Below are positions 4,676 through 13,287 of a DNA stretch of 64,000 bases, one piece after another. The notes below the pieces were generated by a model. It worked only from the letters and a program-made list of their open reading frames with translations, was not told the origin of the DNA and searched no databases. Numbering within the stretch: position 1 is the first letter of the stretch; each line of letters begins with the position of its first letter. The position numbers and the translations under genes were made by a program. Source of the stretch: Candidatus Micrarchaeota archaeon (lineage in GTDB: Archaea > Micrarchaeota > Micrarchaeia > Anstonellales > Anstonellaceae); assembly GCA_026413965.1 (NCBI GenBank), contig JAOAJY010000002.1:12273-76272 (forward strand), in the 5' to 3' direction.

Positions 4676-5218
4676 CTAGGTTTCTTCCTCAAAAGATTTC
4701 GACAGATGCTTTGAGGAGATTTCCTGCATCTTCTCATAGGCTTTGTAATACCTCTGGGTTGCTTTGTAAAGGACGGCAGATATGCCAGCAAGAATGAAGC
4801 CTGGAAGCATTTTTGGGCTGCTGAATGCCTCAAGCGCCTCCCCTTTGGAGAAGCTCAGCAGCCCAGAGAAAAGAAAAGAGCACATGCCGGCATAAGCGGC
4901 TAGGAAAGCCGCCTCAAGCCTGTTTCTTGTGCGAACAAGGCTTCTGCCCAAAACAAAGAAATCCTCCACCAGCCTTTTTTCCTCCAAAGCCTCCATCTTC
5001 AAAATTTCCTGCGCATCCTCCTTGCTTATAGGCTGGGCTTTCCTTTCTGCCTTCCTTTCAAGCTCAGAGAACTTTTTCTCAAAAGCCTGGTACTCTTTGT
5101 ATTCCCTGAAAAATCTGCTCTTCACGCTTTCCTTCCCCAAATCCATGAATTTTCTGAAGCTTTCTGCCATCTGCCTTTTGGCTTTCTGGGCATTCACAAA
5201 ATTCCCTCCTTCCTGCAT
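4676..5218 (-). CDS. Hypothetical membrane protein
   Basis: 180-aa ORF with a charged, helical N-terminal half and two hydrophobic segments near the C-terminus (AAFLAAYAGMCSFLFSGLLSF, MLPGFILAGISAVLY). No family was recognised. Confidence 0.5.
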   Translation of the reverse strand: MQEGGNFVNAQKAKRQMAESFRKFMDLGKESVKSRFFREYKEYQAFEKKFSELERKAERKAQPISKEDAQEILKMEALEEKRLVEDFFVLGRSLVRTRNRLEAAFLAAYAGMCSFLFSGLLSFSKGEALEAFSSPKMLPGFILAGISAVLYKATQRYYKAYEKMQEISSKHLSKSFEEET

Positions 5219-5295
5219 CCATGCTGCTTTTTTTTATTATCACCATTGAGGACAGACTCGCAAGGTTTTGGGCGCGAAGCAAAGCGAAAGCTTTG

Positions 5296-5407
5296 CAACG
5301 TAGGGGGCTTTTCGGATATTCTTAGCGCCCCTCAACAAACCCTTAGGTTGCATGTTGGGGGTGAGCCCTCAGGGGGCTTTCCGGTTATTCTTAGCGCCCC
5401 CTAGGGA
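5296..5407 (-). repeat. 112-nt tRNA-trailer element, copy A (directly 3' of tRNA-Ala)
   Basis: The reverse complement, TCCCTAGGGGGCGCTAAGAATAACCGGAAAGCCCCCTGAGGGCTCACCCCCAACATGCAACCTAAGGGTTTGTTGAGGGGCGCTAAGAATATCCGAAAAGCCCCCTACGTTG, matches 13176..13287 at 106 of 112 positions. It begins at the nucleotide after the tRNA discriminator. Confidence 0.9.
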
Positions 5408-5542
5408 TGGACTCGGGGGGATTGGCGGCTGTGCCAGAAATTCTGGCAAAGCTTTCGAACCCCCAGCCTCCTGCATTACGGAAGGCTGCTTTTTTCAGGC
5501 AGCCTTTGCCATGCAGGCGCGCTACCGTTGCGCCACAAGCCC
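5408..5542 (-). tRNA. tRNA-Ala(GGC) with two insertions (anticodon loop ~31 nt, T-loop 32 nt)
   Basis: Minus-strand read: GGGCTTG-TG-GCGC-AACGGTA-GCGC-G-CCTGC-ATGGCA[intron]-GCAGG-AGGCT-GGGGG-TTCGAA[32]T-CCCCC-CGAGTCC-A. A G3:U70 pair (the alanine identity element) is present, and the anticodon is GGC. Segment lengths sum to 135 nt. Confidence 0.8.
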
Positions 5543-5545
5543 AAA

Positions 5546-5770
5546 TCAAGATGGAGAGATGTAAATCACAGAGTCGCCTCGCACAAGCACTGTCCCTATG
5601 CCTCGCTTGACTTCTCCGTCCTTCAGCTGCTCTGCTTTCTCAAGAACCAAATTCATATGCACATCATAGCTGACCATGATGCCCCTAAGCTCGGTTCCGC
5701 CTTTCAGCCCCACTATCACTGTGTTGTTGAGCGCGCCATTGAGCACATCAAAAGGTCTTTTGTCAGGCAT
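5546..5770 (-). CDS. Sm-like (LSm/SmAP) RNA-binding protein
   Basis: 74 aa with Sm1/Sm2 motifs ([26 protein letters not shown]...[11 protein letters not shown]). The stop codon lies 3 nt from the 5' end of tRNA-Ala. Confidence 0.9.
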
Positions 5771-5834
5771 TTTCCCTACCTCCTAAAAAAACAAACTTGC
5801 AATTTGAACCCAAATGTTTTAAACATCTACCTAC

Positions 5835-7475
5835 ATGTTTTGCGCTGGTGGGCAGGTGGCAGAAGAATTCAGCGAAAAGGAAAAAGCCATTCTTTCCCAA
5901 TTTTGCACCAACACGGACTCTGATGTGTTTGCCCTCATAAACCTTCCGGAAGTGGTAAAAGGCGCGCTTTTTTCCAGATATTCCCGCTCATCAAAATCCC
6001 TGCGCAGGCTTCTTTTGGACGAGTTCATTCTCAATCCAGAGTCCGGCTTTGAGGCTATTGTGGGCGAGGCCAAAAGCAGAGGAGAGTCTCAGCTTATCGC
6101 CATAAAGAAAGCGGAGGAGTTTTATGACCGGGTGCTTGTGGGATACGGGGATGATTCGGTGGCTGAGCTTGGGGGCGCCCACCTTGCCGCAGAGAACATC
6201 TCCAACCTTGCCACAAAAGCGATGCAGGACAGCAGGATAGGAATCTCGCCGCTTGAGAAATCCACCCGCTATGTCTTCTTCGACCAGAAGGAAAGCGGAA
6301 ATTACCGCTACTTGCGGGAGCAGAGAATAATGGAATCGCGCTTTGCCGATGATTATCTTCAAGCCTGCGATTTGCTTTTTGACACATACTGCAAGCTCAT
6401 ACCTGAAGTCTCGAAAATGCAGCAGGAAAAATTCCCGCGCCAGGAGGATGTGAGCGAGAGGGCGTATGCCTCGACCATAAAAGCCAAGGTATGCGACATT
6501 TTGAGGGGCATCCTTCCAGCCTCCACCCTCACCAACGCGGGCTTTTACGGAAACGGCAGGGCTTTTGAGTACATGCTTGTCAAGATGTACTCCTCTCCTC
6601 TTGTCGAGGTCCGCCTGCTTGCCTCAAAAGCCCACCATGAGCTCTCCAAGGTCATCCCCTCGTTTGTCAAAAGGGCAGACGACAAATACGGAAAGGAGCA
6701 GCAGGAATACTTGGCTGCAAGCAGGCAAGAGGTTGCACGCCTTGCCGAAAAATACAGCTCTTTGGGGAAAGCCAGGGAAGAGGCGGCTTCGGTTCAGCTG
6801 GTGGATTTTGACGATGGAGCGGAAGACAAAGTGGTCGCTGCCATCCTGTTTCCCCATCTTCACGCCAGCCTGAATGAGATAAGAAGCGTGGTGGCTTCCT
6901 TGGGCATGGATGAGAAGATCAGGATAGTGGAGGCTTACGTGGGAAAGCGCTCCAACAGGAGGCACAAGCCAGGCAGGGCTTTTGAATCCGCATACTGCAC
7001 ATTTTGCATAACCGGCAATTTCGGCATGTACAGGGACTTGCACAGGCACAGGATTCTCACGCAGGAAAGGCAGCTTCTCACCACCAAGCATGGCTTTGAC
7101 ATGCCTGCTGAGCTTGCAGGCACAGGGCTTGACAAGCTGGTGCAGGAGGCGGTGGCGGCGGCAGATGAGGCTTATTCCCGCATCTGCCAAGAAATGCCTT
7201 ACGAGGCGCAATATGTTGTGCCCCTTGGATGCAGGATGCGCTGGTATGCCAAGATGAATCTTAGGGAGGCTTACCATTTCTGCGAGCTTCGCTCCATGCG
7301 GCAGGGCCATCCGGACTACCGGAAAGTCGCCCAGCAGATGCACAGGCTTCTTTCCAAAGCCTTCCCCCTTCTTGCGTCAGGCATGAAATTTGTGGATTAC
7401 TCTGAATACGATTTTGAGAGGCTGGAGGCAGAGAAGAAGATAGACAGGAAGCTCAGCCAGCTTAGGCAGAAATGA
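5835..7475 (+). CDS. thyX: FAD-dependent thymidylate synthase ThyX-like, tandem-domain form
   Basis: 546 aa, about twice the usual ThyX length. The C-terminal half carries a ThyX-type signature (CTFCITGNFGMYRDLHRHRILTQERQ). The N-terminal half keeps ...EKSTRYV but lacks RHR. Confidence 0.6.
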   Translation: MFCAGGQVAEEFSEKEKAILSQFCTNTDSDVFALINLPEVVKGALFSRYSRSSKSLRRLLLDEFILNPESGFEAIVGEAKSRGESQLIAIKKAEEFYDRVLVGYGDDSVAELGGAHLAAENISNLATKAMQDSRIGISPLEKSTRYVFFDQKESGNYRYLREQRIMESRFADDYLQACDLLFDTYCKLIPEVSKMQQEKFPRQEDVSERAYASTIKAKVCDILRGILPASTLTNAGFYGNGRAFEYMLVKMYSSPLVEVRLLASKAHHELSKVIPSFVKRADDKYGKEQQEYLAASRQEVARLAEKYSSLGKAREEAASVQLVDFDDGAEDKVVAAILFPHLHASLNEIRSVVASLGMDEKIRIVEAYVGKRSNRRHKPGRAFESAYCTFCITGNFGMYRDLHRHRILTQERQLLTTKHGFDMPAELAGTGLDKLVQEAVAAADEAYSRICQEMPYEAQYVVPLGCRMRWYAKMNLREAYHFCELRSMRQGHPDYRKVAQQMHRLLSKAFPLLASGMKFVDYSEYDFERLEAEKKIDRKLSQLRQK

Positions 7476-13175: not shown

Positions 13176-13287
13176 TCCCTAGGGGGCGCTAAGAATATCC
13201 CAAAAGCCCCCTGAGGGCTCACCCCCAACATGCAACCTAAGGGTTTGTTGAGGGGCACTAAGAATAACCGAAAAGCCCCCTGCGTTG
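13176..13287 (+). repeat. 112-nt tRNA-trailer element, copy B (directly 3' of tRNA-Val)
   Basis: It starts at the nucleotide after the discriminator A and matches the reverse complement of 5296..5407 at 106 of 112 positions. It contains two direct sub-repeats, AGGGG(G)C-[18-nt A-rich loop]-GCCCCCT, flanking a 44-nt core that is identical in both copies. Confidence 0.9.

Follow-up and report, generated by a model that had tools for sequence, protein, structure and literature searches.

A tRNA-Ala(GGC) gene directly behind the Sm gene of Micrarchaeota and its probable expression from the Sm transcript

How is a transfer RNA (tRNA) made when its gene begins three nucleotides (nt) behind the stop codon of a protein-coding gene, so that the usual place of a tRNA promoter lies inside the reading frame? 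This question is raised by a locus of Candidatus Micrarchaeota archaeon. In a 64,000-nt stretch of its DNA (hereafter the window; G000:C21:12273-76272), the open reading frame (ORF) of an Sm/LSm protein (hereafter Sm) is followed on the same strand by a tRNA-Ala(GGC) gene with two interruptions and then, directly behind the tRNA, by a repeat element that we call the trailer. We consider it likely that this tRNA lacks a promoter of its own and would instead be released from the 3′ portion of the Sm messenger RNA (mRNA). Throughout, G### denotes genomes and L### the Sm loci of relatives; G000 is the window's own genome, an assembly of 0.77 Mb in 28 contigs that is 87% complete.

Anatomy and transcription signals of the locus

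The features of the locus are collected in Table 1. The Sm protein matched the Pfam family LSM (PF01423, E 1.2e-20, residues 9-73) as a single domain over a protein of ~75 amino acids (aa), and its best relatives in the PDB were archaeal SmAP1 structures (1i81, 1jri and 1i4k); SmAP1 proteins of M. thermautotrophicus, A. fulgidus and P. abyssi matched at E 1e-18 to 1e-24. This ORF is the sole LSM-domain gene of the assembly. Judged from homology alone, its product presumably forms a heptameric ring that binds U-rich RNA.

Table 1. Positions of the features at the Sm–tRNA-Ala locus, in window coordinates
Feature	Position	Strand	Remarks
Predicted Sm TATA box ATGTTTAAAA	5817..5826	minus	score 7.5 bits; at -56 from the Sm ATG
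Shine-Dalgarno-like AGGAGGT	5778..5784	minus	7-8 nt before the Sm ATG; read from the sequence
Sm/LSm (SmAP1-type) ORF	5546..5770 (5770->5546)	minus	74 aa; stop TGA 5548-5546
TATA-like TGATTTACAT	5559..5568	minus	6.0 bits; Sm codons V-I-Y-I; -26..-17 from the tRNA
Spacer TTT, Sm stop to tRNA 5′ end	5543..5545	minus	predicted RNase P site between 5543 and 5542
Pre-tRNA-Ala(GGC), 135 nt	5408..5542	minus	G1 5542, discriminator A73 5408
tRNA-Ala exons	5542-5507, 5475-5454, 5421-5408	minus	anticodon 5510-5508; CCA not encoded
Intron 1, 31 nt	5476..5506	minus	canonical 37/38 site; intron hairpin with 8-bp stem
Intron 2, 32 nt	5422..5453	minus	T-loop; 57/58 to 59/60 possible, AAA bulge points to 59/60
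Trailer element, 112 nt	5296..5407	minus	directly after A73; outside the initially annotated span 5408-5770

The tRNA gene was missed by ARAGORN and by Rfam at the gathering threshold; the unspliced sequence gave a weak Rfam match of 16.5 bits at E 2. Parsed by hand, it has an acceptor stem of 7 base pairs (bp), a D arm, an anticodon stem around 38 nt and a T stem around 39 nt. The initial annotation, a reading of the sequence without database searches, had described an anticodon-loop intron and a T-loop insertion behind a 3-nt gap, and the parse agrees in each respect: removal of both introns left 72 nt that ARAGORN called as tRNA-Ala(GGC), with the alanine identity elements G3:U70 and A73 and the acceptor strands GGGCUUG/CGAGUCC. 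The spliced sequence was 100% identical to the intron-less genes of four relatives (L002, L004, L018 and L019), and it is because of this identity that the intron positions can be assigned and the gene taken to be functional. An unconstrained fold of the precursor yielded a cloverleaf in which each intron formed a hairpin. At intron 1, a near-standard bulge-helix-bulge can form, in which a helix of AUGG with CCGU allows the bulges CA/A and AA/U with one extra U, and the minimum-free-energy fold pairs slightly differently; at intron 2, a well-formed AAA bulge marks the 5′ site and the central helix has only 2 bp, making this a relaxed bulge-helix-bulge. T-loop introns related to intron 2, with the same flanks, were found in L005, L011 and L023.

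Failure of standard tRNA finders to detect the gene, its two insertions and the repeat at its 3′ end might suggest a decaying, unexpressed pseudogene. We regard this as highly improbable, since the exons are identical to those of the intron-less orthologues, the cloverleaf is perfect and carries the alanine identity pair, and the insertions occupy known intron sites with hairpin-plus-bulge flanks. Moreover, this is the only GGC isoacceptor found in the assembly, in which CGC and UGC tRNA-Ala genes lie elsewhere, and the genome has the means and the habit of tRNA splicing: it encodes a multi-unit splicing endonuclease (a 441-aa ORF with several PF01974 units, beside a second matching ORF of 179 aa), and ARAGORN called anticodon-loop introns in ten other tRNA genes. 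As standard finders miss the gene, automatic annotation would report a genome without tRNA-Ala(GGC). A further candidate, a tRNA-Ala(UGC) of 227 nt with large insertions at G000:C3:368-594 (minus strand), was picked up by the acceptor-stem search only and is likewise missed by ARAGORN.

Transcription signals were judged against the other tRNA genes of the same genome. A promoter matrix of 10 columns was derived from the 70 nt upstream of the 18 other tRNA genes of G000, 14 of which have a strong box (consensus ~YTTTTTAAAT, 8-14 bits) that starts at -36 to -30 in 12 cases. The TATA-like boxes that had been noted before tRNA-Val, tRNA-Glu, tRNA-His and tRNA-Phe of the window were recovered at -36 (9.2 bits), -34 (7.2 bits), -36 (11.1 bits) and -34 (8.8 bits), respectively. 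The reported lack of such a box before tRNA-Ala also held: the best site in the slot from -45 to -27 scored 0.2 bits, compared with 7-14 bits for other tRNAs. On the transcribed strand, no run of four or more T occurred from 5545 down to 5202, and this interval accordingly contains no archaeal oligo-T terminator signal; by contrast, tRNA-Glu of the window has TTTTTT immediately 3′ of the gene.

Upstream of Sm, ATGTTTAAAA (5817-5826) was the top match to the tRNA-promoter matrix within 300 nt upstream of tRNA-Ala, and in a sister genome, G009, the Sm gene has the box TGATTTAAAA (8.1 bits), likewise at -56 from the Sm ATG. From this box, Sm transcription is predicted to start near 5795, ~25 nt upstream of the ATG. 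The box of the window lies within a palindrome, GTTTTAAAC (5817-5825, both strands), and could also serve the divergent thyX gene. The annotated thyX ATG (5835) is only ~12 nt from the box, so the true thyX start may be an in-frame GTG near 5856.

G009, which belongs to the same genus and is 100% complete, served as a replicate. Here the promoter slot reached at least 7 bits in 10 of 20 other tRNA genes, and the Sm-linked tRNA-Ala scored -0.1. The two genes even overlap in this genome, the Sm stop TAG sharing its G with G1 of the tRNA-Ala (L008, G009:C1:10447-10449; Infernal start 10449), so that an RNase P cut would leave an mRNA without a complete stop codon. Together, the promoter, spacing, terminator, Sm-box and processing-gene tests, and the conservation described below, support the proposal of the initial annotation that Sm, tRNA-Ala and trailer may form one transcription unit.

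Conservation of the pair across Micrarchaeota

Sm loci were gathered from relatives (30 loci), from the species-representative genome collection (80 loci) and from other families of the phylum (60 loci); removal of duplicates left 151 loci from ~20 families. By Sm protein, the closest relatives were all labelled Candidatus Micrarchaeota or Micrarchaeia, one of them being Candidatus Anstonella stagnisolia. No record of the window's exact Sm protein was found in the contig index, and the contigs with a close Sm protein (P0031) were all metagenomic DNA. A tRNA-Ala was sought in each locus by its G3:U70 acceptor pair and T arm, with introns allowed; one locus, L011, was mis-measured by the acceptor-stem search and left out of the statistics.

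The linkage of Sm and tRNA seen in the window extends to its relatives. A same-strand tRNA-Ala lies at most 700 nt from the Sm stop in 122 of the 151 unique loci, and often far closer (103 loci at 150 nt or less, 60 at 50 or less, 37 at 25 or less and 8 at 5 or less); its anticodon is GGC in nearly all loci. The other 29 loci comprise 3 with a permuted gene at the same place, 5 with an inverted gene and 21 with none, a class that includes several truncated contigs or missed genes (L025, L054 and L090 carry the tRNA on inspection). Most of the ~20 families sampled have the pair. It is present in the window's order and also far from it, in families f13 and f14, where Sm identity drops to 43-55% and spacers of 1-22 nt are usual. 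In the closed genomes G136, G128 and G064, the spacers measure 12, 22 and 11 nt, respectively. The introns are less constant. Among L001-L030, in which close relatives have identical exons, the tRNA-Ala gene has no intron, an anticodon-loop intron only, a T-loop intron only or both, and the precursor measures between 72 and 282 nt, with a maximum of 353 nt reached in L084.

The genes on either side of the pair vary. The commonest downstream neighbour was found in only 12 of 91 loci, and the upstream position is taken by co-directional TatD-NYN genes in ~40 of 91 loci and by the divergent thyX in the window instead. Across eight metagenome contexts of one identical Sm protein, the tRNA was kept in all eight, and the upstream gene was NYN, IS605 OrfB, a deaminase or an unassigned ORF. 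The order Sm followed by tRNA-Ala is an old feature of Micrarchaeota. Our literature search found no paper that describes an Sm–tRNA-Ala unit in this phylum.

Two observations on these loci stand apart from the question of transcription. Where a TatD-like nuclease gene and a gene for a 160-aa NYN-domain (RNase-like) protein directly precede Sm, a TatD-NYN-Sm-tRNA-Ala cluster of genes for RNA metabolism results (for example in L056, L058 and L185); in the window's genome, the NYN gene lies elsewhere (G000:C22:44635-45015). In L067, L080 and L100, a tRNA-Ala(GGC) gene 27-300 nt downstream of the Sm stop looks circularly permuted: a 3′ piece (T-loop end, 3′ strand of the T stem, 3′ strand of the acceptor stem and A73) comes first, followed by a T-rich linker of 13-16 nt and a 5′ piece that ends inside the T-loop, the break point being the T-loop site of the intron in the window gene. 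When L100 was folded, the acceptor strands paired across the linker, and the T-loop UGCGA can pair with UCGCA just before the 3′ piece. Among the papers listed by a literature search on permuted tRNA genes and Micrarchaeota, none dealt with both.

Several results weigh against a tRNA-Ala made by read-through from Sm. Among relatives with spacers of 10-150 nt, 47 of 87 have a run of at least five T between Sm and the tRNA, and in 22 of these the run lies within 20 nt of the Sm stop. In L010, L018, L019, L021, L056, L048 and L086, a run of five to seven T follows right after the Sm stop in spacers of 14-21 nt, which are too short for a promoter; a terminator-like signal thus lies inside what must be a read-through unit. 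With spacers of 35-150 nt, a correctly placed box reached 8 bits or more in 11 of 57 loci, and so the tRNA can be independent in some lineages. With spacers of 9-22 nt, the V-Y-I codons of Sm (GTTTATAT) fall at -35..-44, the usual position of a box, and these codons score 9-12 bits in L137, L166, L180 and L048. Across relatives, short spacers go with a more TATA-like sequence in the last 12 codons of Sm (+2.4 bits with G+C content at third codon positions controlled for, t = 4.1; relatedness ignored), which makes an embedded promoter possible in some lineages. Archaeal ORFs often contain internal transcription starts (PMC4247193), and in the window itself the 6.0 bits of TGATTTACAT correspond to about the 95th percentile of random 33-nt windows.

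As the chief alternative, a cryptic promoter inside the Sm coding sequence, either TGATTTACAT in the V-I-Y-I codons or a weak site further upstream, might drive the tRNA independently of Sm. For the window we consider this unlikely. Even the tRNA box of G000 that lies nearest to its gene starts 4 nt further upstream than TGATTTACAT does, and the typical one 8 nt further upstream; given the usual ~26 nt between box centre and start site, a transcript driven by TGATTTACAT would start near +5 and contain a truncated tRNA. In L007-L009, with spacers of -1 to 1 nt, the box is closer still, and no other site inside the Sm ORF of the window exceeds 4.8 bits. The enrichment of TATA-like sequence at Sm 3′ ends is confounded by relatedness and is strongest for spacers of 8 nt or less, where the position is wrong for a box. 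Transcription from the promoter upstream of Sm is the account of tRNA-Ala expression that we prefer for this locus.

Predicted processing and the trailer element

On the preferred account, transcription from the TATA box at 5817-5826 would cover first the Sm ORF, then the tRNA with its introns and finally the trailer repeat, and would meet no oligo-T terminator before at least 5202. RNase P would cut at 5543/5542 to free the 5′ end of the tRNA, and the same cut would make the 3′ end of the Sm mRNA (...UGA UUU); given a junction of 3 nt, it is RNA processing and not termination that must make this end. Cleavage by tRNase Z after A73 (5408) would release the trailer, the multi-unit splicing endonuclease would remove both introns and a ligase would join the three exons; CCA would have to be added because none is encoded. 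The RNase P RNA of this pathway is present in the genome (RF00373, 103 bits, G000:C21:7838-8080), ~9.7 kb away.

Two consequences for translation may be expected. As long as the precursor is uncut, a ribosome that terminates at the UGA would need to open the acceptor and D stems, and on each molecule translation would thus compete with folding or processing of the tRNA. In species with the stop-codon overlap of G009, A-rich tailing could, as an idea only, restore the stop codon; the window's genome encodes two adjacent RNase PH-domain genes that are exosome-like. We also considered whether the Sm mRNA ends in the U-rich ligand of Sm itself. This was not supported as a specific signal: T makes up ~40% of the spacers over their whole length, and leaders commonly have U at -1.

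The 112-nt element that the initial annotation placed directly behind the tRNA does begin right after A73. It consists of ~1.6 units of a ~70-nt repeat, with unit starts at 5401 and 5331 and a GGGGGC...GCCCCC hairpin at the opening of each unit, and shares 106 of its 112 nt with the stretch that follows tRNA-Val (13176-13287). In G000, the trailer directly follows five tRNAs, namely Ala(GGC), Val(GAC), Pro(UGG), Val(CAC) and one on C5; the copies always begin TCCCTAGGGGGC, directly after a 3′ end that reads ...CCA. The four other trailer-bearing tRNAs (Pro, two Val and one more) each have a promoter of their own. Being present in several copies behind five tRNAs, the trailer is not specific to Sm, and the pattern fits a mere passenger of the Sm unit that is transcribed with whichever tRNA precedes it. 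Of the C (RUGAUGA) and D (CUGA) boxes of a C/D small RNA, the trailer contains CUGA alone and no C box, and it matched no Rfam family. In relatives such as L008 and L009, a T-run closes each trailer unit, which in this respect would resemble a small RNA that is co-transcribed and brings its own terminator.

Further downstream, an ORF of 180 aa (4676-5218, minus strand) gave no Pfam match; its likely start is a GTG at 5197 behind GGAGGG. An A-rich box at 5227-5240 is a possible promoter of this ORF. No terminator separates the trailer from it, so read-through from the Sm unit could reach the ORF as well.

The missing L37e gene and comparison with known systems

Sm lies directly upstream of rpl37e in nearly all archaea and is co-transcribed with it in H. 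volcanii; tRNA genes often adjoin the Sm-L37e pair in other archaea (PMC3710371). In G000, we found no match to L37e (PF01907), and Sm is followed by tRNA-Ala instead of rpl37e. A survey with PF01907 of 121 Micrarchaeota genomes (117 of them at least 90% complete) gave nothing above the cut-off and only weak zinc-ribbon fragments, while all 4 archaeal controls were positive. L37e has been reported absent from the closed Mia14 genome by Golyshina et al. (PMC5498576), an absence that the phylum-wide non-detection extends. In this phylum, tRNA-Ala(GGC) occupies the place of L37e, the missing second gene of Sm. Genes that intervene between Sm and the tRNA in long-spacer loci were ruled out as remnants of L37e; they are unrelated ORFs.

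Does this replacement have a meaning? Co-transcription may be real and yet carry none, if the tRNA landed behind Sm after loss of L37e and compaction and has been kept there by inertia, an explanation to which we give close to an even chance. It sits well with the non-detection of L37e in 121 genomes and with the frequency of tRNA genes beside Sm-L37e in other archaea (PMC3710371). There is also free variation in spacer length (-1 to several hundred nt), introns and orientation, with another gene in between or the tRNA inverted in some lineages, and the spacers have no special U-rich 3′ end beyond their general T content. However, the pair is present in ~80% of loci while both flanks turn over, which is more than plain synteny decay predicts, and in other species the RNAs that archaeal Sm proteins bind or pull down include tRNAs, pre-tRNAs with introns and RNase P RNA (PMC4500138).

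A more far-reaching view, which we hold to be rather unlikely, is that Sm followed by tRNA-Ala(GGC) is an ancient, selected bifunctional unit that replaced the pan-archaeal Sm-L37e operon, with Sm binding coupling its own synthesis to the processing of the pre-tRNA. If so, the RNase P cut would make the Sm mRNA 3′ end, in some species at the cost of the last base of the stop codon; Sm, known elsewhere as a binder of U-rich RNA, could bind the precursor or the U-rich junction; and the outcome could be autoregulation, or an attenuator at the T-run of many relatives.

The spliceosomal Sm/Lsm proteins of eukaryotes have old relatives in the Sm proteins of archaea. What the archaeal proteins may do is best indicated by their fixed partnership with L37e and by the RNAs recovered with them in pull-downs, namely tRNAs, pre-tRNAs and RNase P RNA. 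Micrarchaeota provide a natural variant, in which L37e is gone and a heavily processed tRNA would be attached to the Sm transcript, often with no spacer. The pair is a concrete substrate for asking whether Sm acts on pre-tRNA and, being phylum-wide, can be examined wherever a member is grown or a metatranscriptome exists. Read from its sequence, it would also give archaea a clear example of RNase P being needed to form the 3′ end of an mRNA.

Among known systems, the Sm-L37e operon, with its co-transcripts in S. solfataricus and H. volcanii, is a close counterpart. In both arrangements, a single SmAP1-type gene stands first in a short set of co-directional genes, and the gene behind it serves the translation apparatus; here, unlike in the operon, that second gene is a tRNA, joined through a 3-nt junction. 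The tRNA itself recalls ARMAN-2 and other Micrarchaeota, which have disrupted tRNA genes and a broad-specificity splicing endonuclease of three units. The multiple introns, including those at non-canonical T-loop sites, and the long multi-unit EndA gene are shared with them and nothing is new in kind; what is new is the gene to which the tRNA is attached.

The delimiting of a neighbouring mRNA by RNase P and RNase Z cuts at a tRNA is familiar from tRNA punctuation in mitochondria and from bacterial tRNA-mRNA operons (E. coli tRNA-tufB), and the overlap of stop codon and G1 in G009 resembles the incomplete stop codons of mitochondria. The present case differs from these in that it lies on an archaeal chromosome on which tRNAs regularly have individual promoters and only this tRNA is attached to an mRNA.

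Within archaea, a tRNA-Lys lies inside the 5′ untranslated region (UTR) of the helicase mRNA TK0306 in Thermococcus kodakarensis (PMC4247193), and Nanoarchaeum equitans has merged transcripts of tRNA halves and mRNAs as well as precursors that join tRNAs to C/D small RNAs (sRNAs) (PMC3491384). The mRNA-tRNA cases share with ours a single primary transcript, which we infer here, and a tRNA without a promoter of its own. In the earlier cases, each observed in a single species, the tRNA is located upstream, in the 5′-UTR; ours is 3 nt behind a stop codon and has two introns, and the pair is phylum-wide. As in the tRNA-sRNA precursors (tRNA-Val-sRNA8 of N. equitans, tRNA-Arg-sR44 of T. kodakarensis and plant tRNA-small nucleolar RNA), the trailer starts right after the discriminator, so that the tRNase Z cut would define its 5′ end; unlike them, it has no C box and consists of ~70-nt hairpin units in tandem, copies of which follow five different tRNAs. 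Viewed beside these systems, the Micrarchaeota locus has ordinary parts that are put together in an unusual way: only 3 nt separate a stop codon from a tRNA, in a pair conserved across a phylum and in the place of L37e.

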